Notes: generated by a model not told the origin, from the letters alone. DNA of 64,000 bases from an uncultured Nannocystaceae bacterium (GCA_964384025.1 CAYLJJ010000013.1:46-64045), one strand, 5' to 3'; counted from the first letter of the stretch, positions 50,771-57,251 are shown. Program-made: numbers and translations.

Positions 50771-51766
50771 TCACTCCTCCAGATGAGCAGCGCCGGGAGA
50801 GTCCATCAAGGCATGGATACGAGCCCGCACCGCTTGAGCCCGCTTGAGGGCTTGGCCTTGGTTGGCATCTTCCAGAGGGTCAACGCTGCGGTCCAACCGC
50901 CCTCGAGTGGCGGCCAGCAGCTCAAAGGCGGGCGCAGAGAGGGACATCAGCTGCCGCAGCCCAGTGAGAGCGCGGCCCAGGGCGGCGACCTGGGAGAAGC
51001 GCCCGGTGCGGTTGGGGGAGAGGCCCTTAAGGAGGATGGTATGGAAGCAGCTCTCCAGGCGACGCTCGAGACGCTGCCCTGAGGGAAGGAGAGGCCAACC
51101 ACTACCATCAATGGGACCGTGGAGGCTCATGGTTGAGGGGGCGACCCCGAAGATCATGGAGTGAACCAGGGCGGTGATCTGGAAGATATCATCGCGAGGA
51201 TCTGGAGGCTCCCCTGTTCGAAGTTGAGGGGCTTGGTAGAGCTGAGACGAAGCAGCATGTGAGAGCAGTCCCCTGTAGAGCCGCTGGAGCCCAAGATCAA
51301 CAATGGAGACCCTCCAATGTCCTCCAGGGCGCTGATCTAAGATGATGGAATCAGCTCCTGGGGGTAGAGGAAAGATGTCGATGCTGTGGATACGCCGCGA
51401 TAGATCGCAGAGCTGTATCCCGATGGAGAGCCCCTGATCGATGCTCAGGGGGTGCTGCTCTTTAAAGAGGCTGGAGAGCGAGACCCCTTGTGGACGCTCA
51501 ACCACCACTATCGCTTCCCCCTCCTCGCTCAGCTCCACCGCCTTGATGGTGCAATAAGGGGTCTCTCGAAGAGGTTTACAGCGCTCAACCTCAGGCTTCA
51601 TTAGGCTCAGGAAGCGCTGAGGGCTGATCCTTGAAAGCTTAGGAAGGAAGAGGGTTACACGCCCTCCTAAGAGACGATCTACAGCCGCAAAGAAGCGCCC
51701 TGAGAGCTGCTCTCCCAGCAAACGCTCTACCAGATAGCGTCCGTGGGTGTTGGGAAAATCTGACAT
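50771..51766 (-). CDS. Ser/Thr kinase-like protein lacking catalytic motifs (pseudokinase)
   Basis: GRYLVERLLG, IVDLG, YQAP, DPRDDIF; no VAIK Lys and no HRD; ATG at 51766. Confidence 0.65.
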   Translation of the reverse strand: MSDFPNTHGRYLVERLLGEQLSGRFFAAVDRLLGGRVTLFLPKLSRISPQRFLSLMKPEVERCKPLRETPYCTIKAVELSEEGEAIVVVERPQGVSLSSLFKEQHPLSIDQGLSIGIQLCDLSRRIHSIDIFPLPPGADSIILDQRPGGHWRVSIVDLGLQRLYRGLLSHAASSQLYQAPQLRTGEPPDPRDDIFQITALVHSMIFGVAPSTMSLHGPIDGSGWPLLPSGQRLERRLESCFHTILLKGLSPNRTGRFSQVAALGRALTGLRQLMSLSAPAFELLAATRGRLDRSVDPLEDANQGQALKRAQAVRARIHALMDSPGAAHLEE

Positions 51767-51875
51767 CAGCCTCGCTCTCAGAGTCCTCAAGATCGCCGCT
51801 AAGGGCCAATCAGCTTGAGGGGAATCCCCCCATCGCTTCTATCTCCTGAGAGTACGCGAAAGATCAAGTTTTCCC
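51767..51875. repeat. 109-bp direct repeat, left copy
   Basis: Aligns ungapped to 57143-57251 with 7 mismatches by manual count. Confidence 0.92.
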
Positions 51876-52436
51876 GATTTTGAACACCGTTTCGCTTATG
51901 AGGGATCATATGAGCGCTGACCGTTTGCATAGGATCGAGGAGCCGCAAAGGCTCCCACGCCACCCTCGTTTTAGTCCACTGGATGTAGATCCGCCGAGTT
52001 TACTGTAATTAGAACGCCGTGAGCGGCAAGATGGCATATTCCGCGCGCTTGTGGTGAGCGCCCTGGTGCGGATGGAAGCGGAGGCATGGCAAGGCCACGT
52101 CGAGCATTCCAGCTGTGCCAGGGTGCCGCTACGGGTGATGTGGCTATGGTAGATTGCTGCTCACGGCGCTCTACTGTTGTTTTACATTCAACATGGATCA
52201 TAAAACCTGACAGTGAAGCTGATGTGAAATGTGTGCTTTCGGTACGTTAGAGGTGATATTCACCGATCAAGACCGTCTGGCCGCCGGTTGAGGCTCCCAC
52301 GGTCTGACCTCGCCCTGTTTGGACAGATAAGCCCTCCATTCAACGCTCAATCGCCAATCTCACCGCCCTTCGATCGCTATGTTTCCTGAGACAAGGATGG
52401 CAATATGGGCGCTCTCAAGAGAAGGAGCCTGGACAG

Positions 52437-55145
52437 ATGAAGCAGGAGAGTAGAGGAGGGCTCAAGCGTTTCGCTCGACGCCTATTTGTGGACATCATCG
52501 CTTTGGGGCTCACCCCAGGAGCGCAGCTCGCGATCGCCACCGCCCAGAACCTCAACGAGAACCTCCCAGGGGCGCTCCCTGCCCCGGCGCGGTTGGCGAT
52601 CACCAGCGCCCAGCGGCTCTATGAGATCCTCCTGGGCGCGGCGCCCAAAGATCGAGCGCAGCTCAGCGAGGAGGCGCGGGCGATGAGCGCGGAGGAGCGA
52701 CGCGCCTTTGCTCTAGAGATCCTGGGGACAGAGCAGCCCCCCGAGCTGCGCGAGGCGGGGTCGCGGGCCATTGAGGGGATGTTGCAGACCCTGCGCGCCT
52801 CGCCCAAGCGGCATCAGCTGCTCCAGACCATCAATCAGCAAATGTTGAGGGGCACAGGGCAGACCCTTCAGCCGTTGACGCTCTCCCCTCAACAGCGGCT
52901 GCTGGGCGCGGCGGTGGCCTCCTCTATGATGGCCCCCCCCAAGCTGAGCGCGCAGAGCCCGCCAGAGCCCTCAACTTGGCCCCAAGTGCCTGGCTTTAAG
53001 ATCCGCTCTCTCTTAGGCCAGGGCGCCTTTGCGCATATCTACTTGGCCCACAGGCTCAATAAGCAGGGCGCGGTGATCGGGAGCTGCGCCCTCAAAGTAG
53101 GCGCGCTCAACAACCCAAAACGCTTCCGCAGCGAGGTGAAAGCGATGCAGGGCGTCTCTCACCCCAACCTGATCGACTACCTGGACAGTGGGGTAATCCA
53201 GCACCCAAACCGCTTCTGGATCGCGATGCCCAACCTCAGCGGCCTGACTCTCCGGGGGCTGATGGAACAGGGCCTGGATCTGGAGCAGCGGCTGCTGTTG
53301 GCGGCGCAGATCTTAGAGGGGCTCAAGGTGCTGCATGGCGCGGGGATCATCCATCGAGATCTGAAGCCAGAGAACGTCCTGATCACCGACGACGCCCAGC
53401 CCCTGTTGAGCGACTTTGGGTTGAGCCGGAGCAGCGAGGGCGGCCAAGCCTCGACCATGACGCAGCTGGGCGTGGTGATGGGGACGCCCAACTATATGAG
53501 CCTTGAGCAAGCGCGGGGGCTGCGGGTTGGGGCGGAGGCGGATGTCTGGGCCTTTGGGGTGCTGCTCTATGAGCTGCTCACCGGCGGCCTGCCCTTTGAG
53601 GGGATCTCGGTCACTGATATCGCGATCAACATCATCAGGACCCCTCTAAACTTTAAGCAGGAGAGCATCCCAGAGCCATTGCGCCCGATCTTGACGCGCT
53701 GCCTTGAGCAAGAGACCCAGCGGCGCTATCAGAGCGCGGCAGAGCTGGCCCCAGAGTTCTTGCCGGTGGCTGAAGAGCTGCGGCGCGAGCTGCGACACGA
53801 GCGCTATCAGGGAGGCTGGAGCCAAGTGATCGAGGGGCGGCTGCTTGAGGCCTTCGCGGCGCGCTGTCAGGGGCGGCTGCCAGACTCTCCAGCGGAGCAG
53901 TTTGTCATCAGCTATCCAGAGCTGCCTGAGCTGGATATGGAGCGCCTGGATAAGGTGTTGTCTCAAGTGTTCAAGCTACAGCGCGAGGTGGAGCGGCTGC
54001 GCGCCGCTCTGCCCCCTGCGTGGGATTGGGAGGAGGAGGTTAAGCAGGCTGAGAAGCGGGCTCAAGATGCGCTGAAGATCAGGAGCATCGAAGAGGCGAT
54101 GGATCGAGCAGCTGAGGTGGTGCAAGCGCAGCAGATCGCACGGGCTGCGGTTGAGAAGCGCCGAGCTGAGGCGAAGGGGCAGGCGCGTAAGGGGAAGGCG
54201 GCGCTCACCAAGGCAGAAAGGCAAGTCGCCAAGGCCGTTCAGCAGACGCTGCGTCGAGAGATGGAGGATTATAAGGAGCTGAAGGCGCGGGAGGCTAGAC
54301 GGGAGGCTGAGGCGAGGGCCAGACGAGAAGAGGCTGAGAGGGAGAAAATAGGGAAGGTGATCCTTGAGAGGAGCCCTGAGCGACCGGCCTTGGTCTATAT
54401 CCCCAGCGGCAGCTTTATGATGGGGAGCCCTGATGGAGAGGGAGAAGATGATGAGCATCCTCAGCACAGGGTTGAGCTGACGCGCCCCTTCTTAATGGCG
54501 GCGACGCCGGTGACTCAGAGGCAATATGAGGCGGTGATGGAGAATAATCCCTCACATTTTAAGGGAAAATCAGATGGTTCCAGGCGTCCTGTCGAGTATG
54601 TGAGTTGGTTTGATGCTGTACGTTACTGTAATGCTCTATCAGCCAAGGAGAGGTTCAAGCCCGTATATCTGATCAAGGGCAAAGGCGACAAGCAAGAGGT
54701 AACAGAGCTTGGTGGTGATGGATATCGCCTACCGACGGAGGCAGAGTGGGAGTATAGCTGTAGGGCGTGGACCGGTACCGCATACTTTTTTGGTGATGAT
54801 GCTGGAGAGCGATCTAAGTATGCTTGGTTCGGTGAAGGCTCTGAAGGTTCAACTCATCCAGTGGGAGAGAAAGAGGCGAATCCCTGGGGGATGTATGACA
54901 TGTATGGAAATGTATGGGAGTGGTGCTGGGACTGGTACAGCGGCGCCTATACCTCCGATCCAGGCGGCACATCCGTTGACCCAAAGGGAACGCCTGAAGG
55001 CCCGTATCGCGTCATCCGGGGCGGCTCCTACTGGGGCACCGCCTCCTGGGCGCGCTCGGCTTTCCGGTACAGGAGGTGGCCCTGGAGCCGGTACTGGGGT
55101 CAGGGCTTTCGCCCGCTGCGTTTTGCCCTCGGCTCAGATCTTTGA
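52437..55145 (+). CDS. Ser/Thr kinase + coiled coil + FGE-sulfatase (CLec-fold) protein; putative DGR target
   Basis: LGQGAFA, ALKV, HRDLKPEN, SDFG, GTPNYMS; IPSGSFMMGS, DEHPQHRV, YRLPTEAEWEY, NPWGMYDMYGNVWEW, RVIRGGS...GFR. Confidence 0.92.
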   Translation: MKQESRGGLKRFARRLFVDIIALGLTPGAQLAIATAQNLNENLPGALPAPARLAITSAQRLYEILLGAAPKDRAQLSEEARAMSAEERRAFALEILGTEQPPELREAGSRAIEGMLQTLRASPKRHQLLQTINQQMLRGTGQTLQPLTLSPQQRLLGAAVASSMMAPPKLSAQSPPEPSTWPQVPGFKIRSLLGQGAFAHIYLAHRLNKQGAVIGSCALKVGALNNPKRFRSEVKAMQGVSHPNLIDYLDSGVIQHPNRFWIAMPNLSGLTLRGLMEQGLDLEQRLLLAAQILEGLKVLHGAGIIHRDLKPENVLITDDAQPLLSDFGLSRSSEGGQASTMTQLGVVMGTPNYMSLEQARGLRVGAEADVWAFGVLLYELLTGGLPFEGISVTDIAINIIRTPLNFKQESIPEPLRPILTRCLEQETQRRYQSAAELAPEFLPVAEELRRELRHERYQGGWSQVIEGRLLEAFAARCQGRLPDSPAEQFVISYPELPELDMERLDKVLSQVFKLQREVERLRAALPPAWDWEEEVKQAEKRAQDALKIRSIEEAMDRAAEVVQAQQIARAAVEKRRAEAKGQARKGKAALTKAERQVAKAVQQTLRREMEDYKELKAREARREAEARARREEAEREKIGKVILERSPERPALVYIPSGSFMMGSPDGEGEDDEHPQHRVELTRPFLMAATPVTQRQYEAVMENNPSHFKGKSDGSRRPVEYVSWFDAVRYCNALSAKERFKPVYLIKGKGDKQEVTELGGDGYRLPTEAEWEYSCRAWTGTAYFFGDDAGERSKYAWFGEGSEGSTHPVGEKEANPWGMYDMYGNVWEWCWDWYSGAYTSDPGGTSVDPKGTPEGPYRVIRGGSYWGTASWARSAFRYRRWPWSRYWGQGFRPLRFALGSDL
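54371..54608 (+). repeat. 238-bp FGE-domain 5' segment, inverted copy at 55918-56155
   Basis: 3 mismatches in 238 bp by manual comparison. Confidence 0.92.
55005..55121 (+). other. Putative DGR variable region (VR)
   Basis: YRVIRGGSYWGTASWARSAFRYRRWPWSRYWGQGFR at the canonical CLec VR position; many NNC codons where a TR would carry AAC. Confidence 0.55.
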
Positions 55146-55259
55146 GGATAGACCTATGATCTATAGAGACAGGGGTGTTCCGGGAACAGAAGGAGGAGTT
55201 GGGCACAAGAAGAGATCGCTTTCGGAAACAAAAGCTTGGGAAACATGCCGCAGACGTTC

Positions 55260-55299
55260 CGATGTGCCTTTTACAAAGGGAGCAGAGAAAGGCACATCG
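55260..55299. terminator. 12-bp inverted repeat hairpin between convergent target and RT genes
   Basis: CGATGTGCCTTT (55260-55271) / AAAGGCACATCG (55288-55299), 16-nt loop; could be a terminator or a DGR cis-hairpin. Confidence 0.55.
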
Positions 55300-55336
55300 A
55301 AACAGCAGCTGGCACTGCTCGAAAATGTGAGTTATC

Positions 55337-55920
55337 TTAGAAAAGGAGCATTCCTTGATAGGAAGCCAGTACTCGCTCCCAGCTGGGCTCCCCTGTCTTG
55401 ATCGCCTGAGCCATCCTCCTCTGAAAGCGTCGCCTGACACGGGGGAGCGGTCGCCGGTCTCCTCTGGAGACGCGATAACCCAGACCATCAAGGGTGTTAA
55501 AACAGGAGAGGATTGGGGCCTCCGGTCGCTTCAGCCTGAGCCCCCGCTTCTCCTCTACCCAAGCTTTGATCTCAGCCCGCCAAACTCGCAGCGCCGCCCG
55601 TTTCGGCGAGAAGAGAAAGAGGTCATCAACATAGCGCACATAAAAGGGCACACGGAGCTGCCGCTTGATGAAATGGTCAAGCGCGTTGAGATAGAGATGG
55701 GTGGCCCAAAACTGACTGGTGCTGCCCATCGGGAGCCCTCGTCCAGCGGGGGGCCACTCCGCTGAAAGGGCGATATGTCGCCGGATGTTGGGCCGCTGAT
55801 AGAGCGCCTGTCCAGTCTCCAAGAGCAGCTCAATGATCGCTAGGATTTGAGGAGAGCGGATCTTGCGTTGAAGCAGCTTCAGCAGGATTTGAGGATCGAC
55901 CGAGGCGAAGTAGGATTCCA
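55337..55920 (-). pseudogene. 3' half of a DGR-type reverse transcriptase (N-terminal RT domains missing)
   Basis: SYFASVD, RGLPMGSTSQFWA..LYLNALDHFIKRQL, YVRYVDD, LDGLGY, LASYQG; sequence upstream of ESYF belongs to the FGE gene. Confidence 0.85.
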
Positions 55921-56991
55921 ACTCACATACTCGACAGGATGCCTGGAACCATCTGATTTTCCCTTAAAGTGTGAGGGATTATTCTCCATCACCGCCTCAT
56001 ATTGCCCCTGAGTCACCGGCGTCGCCGCCATTAAGAAGGGGCGCGTCAGCTCAACCCTGTGCTGAGGATGCTCATCATCTTCTCCCTCTCCATCAGGGCT
56101 CCCCATCATAAAGCTGCCGCTGGGGATATAGACCAAGGCCGGTCGCTCAGGGCTCTTCTCCAGCATTAACTCTCCCGCCTCGGGCTGCTTAGGCGGTGGA
56201 GGTGGCTTAGGAGAGGGCCTAGGCGGTGGTGTAAGTGAGGGCAGCAGCGCCCCAAGCGCCTCTACCATCGCGGCCCGCGTCCAGCCCTTCATCCCCTGGG
56301 TCCAAACCGGCGTCTCGGGCCTCAGCATCCCTGTCTCCTCAAGCTGGGCCTTCTTAAACGGCCCTTGCTGCTCTCCCCCAAGGTGCAGCCACCACCGTGG
56401 CTCGCTTGAGCGCGCAGCTGAGCGATGTTTGGGCAGCCCCCAAACATCGCTCCCCAAGCTCTGCGCCTCCCCCTCTGTCCCTGCCATCAGGAGGCTCTGA
56501 AAGGCGAACATCGGCATCTGTAAGATCTGCGGTTGCTCCTCTAAGCGCAGGAAGAGGGGCATCATCCCCCGCTGAATCGACTCCTCCGGCTTGAGGAGTT
56601 GGCCGTAGGCTTGTGGATTCTTGAGCAGCTCGCTGTAGTGGCGATTGTCTTGCAGCATCCCCTCGAAGACCCCCACCATGTACTCCTGAGATTGCATCTC
56701 TACAAACTCTCGCAGGGCCTCGCTGAGCACCTCTGGTCTCAGCCTCGGCTGGCGCAGCTCATCCAACAACTCTAAGAAGACCTCCTTGATGATCCCCCGC
56801 TGTCCACGCTCAACACGGGTCAGCCCAGCCTCAACTGCCTTGATCGCTGCTTTGTTGTTGAGCTGAGCCCGTTGGTTGGCGACCCCATCCCAGACCTCAA
56901 CCACCCGCCCCGCGACGGGGACCGACTTCAACGCGCAGAGCAAGCTCTGCTCAGCGGTTGTCTTGATGGTCTCAAGGCTGACTCCAAACAT
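55879..56991 (-). pseudogene. Second putative DGR target: helical N-terminus + GYF_2(DUF4339)-like domain + Pro linker + truncated FGE domain
   Basis: ATG at 56991 after GGAGGAAGG; WWLHLGGEQQGPF...TPVWTQGMKGW; FGE stops at PVEYVSW (55918), then runs out of frame into RT DNA. Confidence 0.8.
55918..56155 (-). repeat. 238-bp FGE-domain 5' segment, inverted copy of 54371-54608
   Basis: Manual reverse-complement alignment, 3 mismatches. Confidence 0.92.
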
Positions 56992-57142
56992 CCTTCCTCC
57001 AATCGCCGTAAGCCCAACGCTCCATCTTCTCAGCGCTGGACAGCGCCCATGTATATGCTCTCTCTCCTCGCAGGCGCACTGAGAGGACGACAGGTGTACC
57101 CCTAAGCTGATCGCTATCGCCAAGACCGCTTCTTCCCCCCAC

Positions 57143-57251
57143 CAGCCTCGTTCTCAGAGTCCTCAAGATCGCTGCTGAGGGCCAATCAGCTTGAGGGGAA
57201 TCCTCCCATCGCTTCTGTCTCCTGAGAGTACGCAAAAGATCAAGTCTTCCC
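57143..57251. repeat. 109-bp direct repeat, right copy
   Basis: Matches 51767-51875. Confidence 0.92.

Follow-up and report, generated by a model that had tools for sequence, protein, structure and literature searches.

A probable degenerate diversity-generating retroelement with an intact, diversified kinase target in an uncultured member of the Myxococcota

Positions 52437-56991 of a 64-kb stretch of DNA from an uncultured Nannocystaceae bacterium (hereafter, the window) hold a fragment of a reverse transcriptase (RT) gene lodged between two genes that encode C-type lectin (CLec) domains of the FGE type. This arrangement raises the question of whether the region is what remains of a diversity-generating retroelement (DGR) and, if so, what became of its machinery and of its targets. 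We consider it probable (roughly 0.8) that the region is a degenerate DGR cassette of an uncultured Myxococcota genome, struck by a single deletion and retaining an intact, diversified kinase target. An RT fragment with DGR signatures between two CLec genes had been reported in a first-pass annotation, and all of these features are present where it placed them, one CLec gene being fused to a Ser/Thr kinase (Pfam Pkinase, E 3.8e-41) and the other to a GYF_2 domain (E 4e-13). Both genes were rightly recognized as CLec targets, with the qualification that the CLec domain of the GYF gene is itself truncated, leaving only one usable variable region (VR). The description of the genome as myxobacterium-like is backed at the phylum level, HscA being closest (59-65% identity) to Myxococcota, Myxococcales and Bradymonadia proteins. 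The three genes of the region are the following:

52437-55145, plus strand: kinase-CLec target gene, 902 aa (intact open reading frame, ORF; Pfam)
55337-55921, minus strand: RT remnant, 194 aa (ORF), equal to codons 134-328 of a 328-aa DGR RT
55879-56991, minus strand: GYF_2 gene with its CLec domain cut short, 370 aa as called (ORF; Pfam)

The RT remnant reads SYFASVD...GRGLPMGSTSQFWATH...LDHFIKRQL...YVRYVDD and runs from motif 2 (SYFASVD) to the C-terminus, the set of motifs 1-7 being incomplete. Residues 133-328 of P0001, an RT of 328 aa, match it with 96% amino acid identity (E 6.9e-119). Being a fragment, the ORF scores just 25 bits on RVT_1, short of the cut-off. The best solved-structure match of the RT is PDB 8ub7 (E 1.4e-33), which we take to be the RT (bRT) of Bordetella phage BPP-1; the corresponding values are 1e-17 for a group II RT and 3e-12 for a retron-type RT. 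A literature search turned up no paper that names 8UB7 or the sample accessions. Scores against NCBIfam models of other RT classes were 97 bits versus a cut-off of 300 for group II (TIGR04416), 45 versus 200 for Drt3a, 31 versus 235 for retron St85 and 26 versus 250 for AbiA. Rfam yielded no intron or retron RNA in 51000-59000, and PADLOC returned generic RT and kinase similarity (PD-T4-6, mad6) and no specific defence system. Judged by its sequence, the remnant is a DGR-lineage RT.

This assignment is borne out by the genomic context of P0001, which is encoded on L002 (9.4 kb, JGI 3300009008) and again on L087 (ENA SAMN10231913), in a complete cassette. On L002 this sister cassette comprises a CLec gene, a 59-aa ORF (orf59), a gene of the HTH_17/excisionase-like type, bAvd (PF22296, NF033474), a template repeat (TR), the RT and a convergent kinase-CLec gene 83% identical to that of the window. 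The 132-nt sister TR (L002 1876-2007) differs from one VR of the cassette (VR1) at 18 positions, 17 of them adenines, and from the other (VR2) at 12 positions, 11 of them adenines; since all but one of the mismatches in each comparison fall at adenines, the sister locus is a bona fide DGR. A further contig, L083, reveals that the upstream CLec gene of the sister cassette is the GYF gene (91% identical to the window copy, dN/dS 0.19). The ancestral order was thus GYF_2-CLec target > 59-aa ORF > HTH_17 > bAvd > TR > RT < convergent target, the last consisting of N-terminal domain, kinase, linker and CLec. In the sister, GYF-CLec is split by an insertion sequence (IS; L083 2883/2884, L002 113/114) that has terminal inverted repeats of 15 nt, GAGC[C/G]TGTTGTGAAC, and is bordered by a duplicated TTA target. 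As the window copy was instead cut by a deletion, the gene was disrupted independently, and at different sites, in the two loci. The sister cassette also adjoins IS66 and IS21 fragments.

A wider survey placed both loci in a family of DGRs. The RT has 332 relatives among GTDB species representatives, in Acidobacteriota, Myxococcota, Planctomycetota, Chloroflexota and other phyla; no close relative of the source genome was found among these representatives (best RT identity 52%). We examined 81 loci of RT relatives, L002 included, and 54 of them contain A-biased TR/VR pairs, in which the TR directly neighbours the RT and an FGE-domain ORF ends in the VR; these pairs adjoin Avd and CLec genes. 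The nearer RT clade shows the recurrent order target > HTH > Avd > TR > RT < target, in which the CLec targets are TIR-NACHT, trypsin-NACHT or kinase fusions, usually one per side of the HTH-Avd-TR-RT block. Directly upstream of Avd, nearly all closer RT relatives (L003-L048), from several phyla, carry the HTH_17/excisionase-like gene. Loci of the Chloroflexota type, which are more distant and have the TR downstream of the RT, lack it. The HTH_17 gene is a clade-specific DGR accessory gene. The GYF_2-CLec architecture, for its part, occurs in 0 of 80 related loci, and a literature search found it in no paper that discusses DGRs.

Comparison with the sister cassette allows the lesion in the window to be read to the base. 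The features that bear on it are:

55918-55922, minus strand: deletion junction, ...GAGTATGTGAGTTGG joined to AATCCTACTTC..., from alignment to L002
~55915-56142, minus strand: CLec stub of the GYF gene, ~84 residues (Pfam)
~56254-56394, minus strand: GYF_2 domain (Pfam)

The FGE-sulfatase match of the GYF gene covers profile positions 3-99 of 255, and its ORF, if taken from an upstream TTG at 57123, spans 55879-57123 (414 aa). Past the residues EYVSW, the GYF frame enters RT DNA, in which it runs through 12 out-of-frame codons to a stop. The RT remnant is in turn out of frame with the upstream GYF ORF and has no in-frame link to a start upstream of motif 2. At the junction (GAGTTGG joined to AATCC, with TTG(G/A) at both parental sites), CLec codon ~84 (EYVSW) meets RT codon 134. 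Homology to L002 ends on the CLec side at ...EYVSW (L002 232) and restarts on the RT side at L002 ~2518-2522, leaving ~2289 nt missing relative to L002 233-2521. Given these two edges, a single ~2.29-kb deletion suffices to account for the architecture as a whole. Lost with it were the C-terminal two thirds of the GYF CLec domain together with its VR, orf59, the HTH gene, Avd, the TR and RT residues 1-133. The event was an illegitimate recombination at the 3-4-nt microhomology, which fused RT codon 134 to mid-domain CLec sequence of the GYF gene and took the fingers domain of the RT away.

With TR, Avd and the RT N-terminus deleted, the locus alone is unable to make mutagenic cDNA. The search space for these parts was the 64-kb window, in which we found no TR-like repeat of the VR (blastn, word size 7, with the VR and the intergenic spacer as queries; nothing beyond chance), no Avd or HTH gene (tblastn with the sister Avd and HTH, E > 1) and no second RT (tblastn). 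The local absence of TR, Avd and intact RT, already suspected from the sequence, is accounted for by the one deletion. The lesion is a known kind of DGR decay, and not a new system or mechanism. Comparing the native remnant sequence (that of L001) with the sister RT gives a dS of 0.23 and a dN/dS of 0.09, divergence being mostly synonymous; the remnant frame is still open. Its GxxxSQ motif has lost one codon (near 55712-55726; GSSTSQ > GSTSQ, where P0001 carries LPMGSSTSQ). The low dN/dS, the open frame and the loss of only one codon from a motif fit a recent loss, and the deletion looks recent relative to the split of the two loci.

To determine whether the remaining VR bears the mark of DGR activity, we aligned it to the sister TR (L002 1876-2007), which served as the reference for the adenine test and defines the following segments:

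54998-55128, plus strand: VR, covering residues ~854-897
54998-55102, plus strand: diversified VR core
55103-55129, plus strand: VR 3' tail, not diversified, divergent

Relative to this TR, 14 of 25 adenines are changed in the VR, as against 6 of 107 non-A sites (Fisher 3.6e-8), and all 14 changes at A sites fall on codon positions 1 or 2. Within the core the VR departs from the sister TR at just 1 of 80 non-A sites and at 0 of 34 non-A third-codon sites; in the flanking CLec sequence, 30% of third positions differ from the sister (P about 5e-6). Adenine-specific changes on an otherwise TR-identical core indicate that the core was overwritten from a TR by mutagenic retrohoming and did not descend with the gene; on this sequence footprint, the kinase VR is a product of past mutagenic retrohoming. 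Its A-site substitutions are unlike those of sister VR2, so that both VRs were diversified independently. The lone non-A change in the core, CGG>TGG (Arg>Trp, ~55092), is common to the window VR and sister VR2, which suggests that the TR recently underwent a T>C change or that the residue is under selection. In the 3' tail, 5 mismatches to the sister TR in 27 nt amount to 18% divergence, where the sister's own VRs match the TR fully.

The first-pass annotation had placed the VR at 55005-55121, a few bases off the limits derived here, and had anticipated a TR partner differing at adenines, which we found in a close relative (L002 1876-2007). Its DGR identification is upheld in that the RT does not group with retron, group II or Abi RTs and a TR-like partner exists.

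The protein that carries this VR is intact, with the following domains:

52437-52991, plus strand: rare N-terminal domain, residues 1-185
~52998-53735, plus strand: Hanks-type Ser/Thr kinase domain (Pfam; HRDLKPEN and DFG in the translation)
~54385-55112, plus strand: C-terminal FGE-type CLec domain (Pfam)

The Pkinase match covers residues 188-433 of the 902 and retains intact HRDLKPEN and DFG catalytic motifs; the FGE-sulfatase/CLec match covers residues 650-892 (E 2.7e-50); and a long charged linker of roughly 200 residues separates the two. Compared with the sister copy, the kinase domain has a dN/dS of 0.13, and by this measure the kinase-CLec gene has been under purifying selection. The CLec part finds its best PDB match in the DGR variable protein TvpA of Treponema denticola (2y3c, E 8e-40), in which the VR likewise lies at the C-terminal end of an FGE-type CLec fold. 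The N-terminal domain of 185 aa is very rare: a search of 1.84 billion proteins found 9 representatives (E <= 1e-3). In all longer matches it precedes a Ser/Thr kinase, followed at the C-terminus by a CLec domain or by Sel1/TPR repeats; this constant pairing with varying C-termini is consistent with a kinase module whose C-terminal sensors are exchangeable. Between the kinase and GYF proteins, the N-terminal regions are not similar, and neither contains a Pfam domain.

TvpA is a surface lipoprotein without a kinase, and differs in this from the window protein, which is apparently cytoplasmic and fused to a signalling domain. No membrane segment lies between kinase and CLec, and we therefore infer a cytoplasmic sensor. 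The variable CLec face would bind a ligand and thereby activate the kinase or direct it to a substrate, so that CLec would gate or steer the kinase; both ideas have been proposed for cyanobacterial kinase-CLec homologues (PMC7517822). With the DGR dead, the specificity of the kinase-CLec protein would now be fixed, unless the sister DGR acts in trans.

Several points weigh against this reading of a dead cassette with a fixed sensor. The ligand, the kinase substrate and the physiological role of the 902-aa protein are purely conjectural, as is the recognition of kin, prey or phage suggested in the first-pass annotation, and the searches for TR, Avd, HTH and RT cover 64 kb of the genome. The adenine test rests on the TR of a sister locus, none being available from this genome (the RT remnants are 93% identical at the nucleotide level). 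Of the six non-A differences, five are crowded into the final 27 nt of the VR, and folding 55095-55215 as DNA gave no stable hairpin past the VR (z -0.4 versus shuffles). Finally, although the VR is identical in four assemblies (window, L001, L085 and L086), this does not demonstrate fixed specificity, as the VRs of the intact sister are just as invariant between L002 and L087. Equal invariance in an intact DGR means that these samples cannot reveal VR activity, and we accordingly dropped cross-sample identity as proof of inactivity. A degenerate TR/VR pattern returned 0 matches among JGI metagenome contigs; as the same pattern does match L001, L002, L085 and L086, that collection must be without these samples.

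The alternative that survives best retains the degenerate locus and keeps the VR alive, with an IS-flanked sister DGR in the same genome supplying RT, Avd and TR RNA in trans; we regard it as possible, but rather unlikely. Sister and window-type loci do co-occur in both checkable samples, as L002 with L085 (JGI 3300009008) and as L087 with L001 (SAMN10231913), but co-occurrence in a sample does not place both in one cell. The two loci share no flanking synteny, so they are paralogous or differently located and not allelic. The VR core equals the sister TR at 34 of 34 non-A third sites, whereas between the RT remnants 13.5% of third positions are different (P about 0.007), and the 18% divergence of the tail would mark the portion that was not transferred. 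Conservation of the TR could nevertheless reflect constraint instead of recent homing in trans, and the five tail mismatches in 27 nt, at sites where the sister VRs match the TR, may block priming; the VR, moreover, is invariant among four assemblies. Precedent exists in the degenerate loci of Thiohalocapsa (PMC10907252). The first-pass annotation's picture of an orphaned remnant therefore stands for the local machinery, and may not hold in full, given an intact sister DGR in the same samples.

A further argument for service in trans came from a patch of single-nucleotide polymorphisms (SNPs) that is exchanged between the loci depending on the assembly:

55461-55622, no strand: 13-SNP patch in the RT remnant, at all 13 sites of which the window carries sister (L002) alleles

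Over 12-15 kb the window differs from L001, L085 and L086 only at these 13 clustered SNPs, plus 3 sites versus both JGI contigs. The three contigs carry the native alleles at 55461-55622, while L087, the ENA assembly of the sister, carries native-window alleles at the same 13 sites in a mirror-image swap. Our first reading of the patch as gene conversion gave way once this mirror swap was seen, assembler bubble merging being at least as likely; such merging between two strains explains the patch equally well. On both readings, the window probably does not show its native sequence at 55461-55622.

Another alternative builds on an inverted repeat, not noted in the first-pass annotation, that links the two CLec domains:

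54355-54608, plus strand: inverted-repeat arm A, N-terminal half of the kinase gene CLec, 254 nt, 97% complementary to arm B
55918-56171, minus strand: inverted-repeat arm B, the sole surviving part of the GYF CLec, 254 nt

The longest exact run between the arms is 148 nt, and the RT fragment begins at the exact base where the inverted repeat ends. Such a repeat could let 54609-55917 invert, switching the VR-bearing CLec half between the kinase and GYF modules, which we think improbable. One contig, L084 (scaffold_100138, 2540 nt), does have the form of the inverted isomer: window 52378-54608 is joined to 56160-55609, and the kinase gene, truncated at EYVSW, continues into RT remnant sequence to encode protein P0169 (736 aa). 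Identity between the arms, 97% in the window, is only ~85% in the sister locus, suggesting homogenisation. This is, however, one short contig, which also carries sister-type SNP patches and is thus a mosaic consensus, and the 148-nt exact run exceeds usual assembler k-mers, making a path switch an easy artefact. Four other assemblies are in the standard orientation, and a search of 5.8 billion proteins did not find the reciprocal product (GYF with a full CLec). As a separate observation on the arms, L085 and L086 differ from the window at 3 sites in arm A (54437-54445; E670R), giving 11 mismatches between the arms versus 8 in the window, a difference that hints at homogenisation or assembly collapse between arms. 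Unlikely as well is the combination of the two proposals, in which a possibly mobile sister DGR rewrites the kinase VR in trans and the inverted repeat flips the CLec half between the kinase and GYF modules. If true, one mutagenic engine would serve dispersed, recombinationally reshuffled intracellular sensors.

We also weighed whether faulty assembly produced the deletion, the cassette being intact at this position in the real genome, which is very improbable. Repeats in the region demonstrably disturb assemblies, as the 13-SNP patch and L084 attest, but the junction sits on a microhomology of 3-4 nt rather than on a long repeat. Five assemblies share it (the window; L001, ENA SAMN10231913; L085, JGI 3300009008; L086, JGI; and L084, ENA SAMN10231914), from at least 4 samples and from NCBI, ENA and JGI alike, and this recurrence argues that it is real and not an assembly error. 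The intact cassette assembles apart from it in the same samples, with other flanks (IS66/IS21). That the locus is no DGR at all, its RT being a retron, group II or Abi-DRT relic and its FGE proteins ordinary formylglycine-type or PvdO-like enzymes, can practically be dismissed: generic RT models do match weakly (PADLOC RT, UG17 and UG4; TIGR04416) and FGE-sulfatase is a broad family, but all those model scores are far below curated cut-offs, the full-length relative has bAvd/NF033474 as its neighbour, along with a TR from which the VRs deviate specifically at adenines, the RT and CLec are matched best in the PDB by 8ub7 and TvpA, respectively, and 54 of 81 related loci are DGRs.

Beyond the degenerate cassette itself, the surroundings contain a direct repeat that brackets it:

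51764-51875, plus strand: left copy of a 112-nt direct repeat, overlapping the minus-strand gene 50771-51790 at its start codon and the region upstream of it
57140-57251, plus strand: right copy, just upstream of the GYF gene

The two copies are 93% identical and are the only ones in 64 kb, where 0 are expected by chance. Each covers the region upstream of a minus-strand gene, the left copy also including the first 9 codons (MRTLRARLM). The repeat matches no Rfam family and folds no better than shuffles; it may be a long target duplication or a promoter duplicated upon cassette insertion. A promoter and terminator scan of the region was uninformative. The 339-aa ORF at 50771-51790 (minus strand), which directly flanks the cassette, has a faint, sub-threshold similarity to Pkinase (E 0.08) and may be a degenerate pseudokinase. 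The cassette has a tRNA-Gly(GCC) gene (58539-58617) and a DUF7873 gene (57418-58203) as immediate neighbours; integration at tRNA genes is common, but no integrase was seen. From 58656 to 63920 and past the window end (L001 6810-13299) runs a string of minus-strand genes encoding a 428-aa Ser/Thr kinase, a 289-aa ORF, a 1155-aa AAA_16/STAND-like ATPase and, just outside the window, an 819-aa FGE-sulfatase-domain protein, whose FGE domain shares only 31% identity with the DGR targets and lacks any match to the sister TR. This string may be a separate conflict or signalling system. The window also encodes nqr genes, sigma-54 activators and several Ser/Thr kinases.

Set beside known systems, the cassette resembles those of Thiohalocapsa PB-PSB1 and other multicellular bacteria, for which degenerate DGR loci beside intact ones and Pkinase-CLec targets have been published (Dore et al. 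2024, PMC10907252); such targets and degenerate loci beyond the cyanobacteria do not agree with the earlier expectation that kinase-CLec targets are mainly cyanobacterial. Like the Thiohalocapsa clade-5 DGRs, the present one is chromosomal, with two CLec-ending multidomain targets flanking Avd-TR-RT, and targets of the same RT family contain TIR-NACHT, trypsin-NACHT or Pkinase. Intact and degenerate loci coexist in both cases with the involvement of IS elements, and the host phylum here likewise has a social, multicellular lifestyle. The likeness to clade 5 (Roux 2021/Dore 2024) is one of target architectures. Differences lie in the GYF_2-CLec partner target, in the conserved HTH_17/excisionase-like gene before Avd and in an inactivating lesion that can be reconstructed exactly.

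Cyanobacterial DGRs also diversify Ser/Thr-kinase-CLec proteins, some paralogues of which retain remnant TR-VR homology with no RT nearby, and a degraded cassette is on record (Vallota-Eastman et al. 2020, PMC7517822). These targets share the N-terminal Hanks-type kinase and the C-terminal CLec VR; the proteins described here, from Myxococcota, are longer, with a rare N-terminal domain and a ~200-residue charged linker, and their RT family has an HTH accessory gene. As in the DGR of Bordetella phage BPP-1 (Mtd, Avd, TR, bRT), we would expect Avd and RT to have formed a complex in the ancestral cassette, its TR to have preceded the RT, and adenine-specific mutagenesis to have been copied into the VR of a C-terminal CLec. 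Unlike the BPP-1 element, it is cellular and not phage-borne and has two convergent targets and an extra HTH gene; no initiation of mutagenic homing (IMH) site or hairpin could be defined in the window.

Part of this picture is already known, namely degenerate DGR loci and Pkinase-CLec targets (PMC10907252), as well as remnant cassettes and the proposal that the diversifier is lost once a good variant has been fixed (PMC7517822). What is new is the GYF_2-CLec target architecture, the conserved HTH_17 accessory gene of a DGR clade and the base-level reconstruction of an inactivating deletion, and kinase-CLec DGR targets are extended to the Myxococcota. The loci also illustrate how paralogous DGRs corrupt metagenome assemblies, through a swapped SNP patch and possibly a false inversion, which matters when VR diversity is called from metagenome-assembled genomes. 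For the DGR family as a whole, the probable history of this locus provides a clean, reconstructable case of the death of a cellular DGR, in which one microhomology deletion takes the TR, Avd and the RT N-terminus and spares a diversified signalling target, and it supports the published idea that hypervariable sensors can be frozen once useful.

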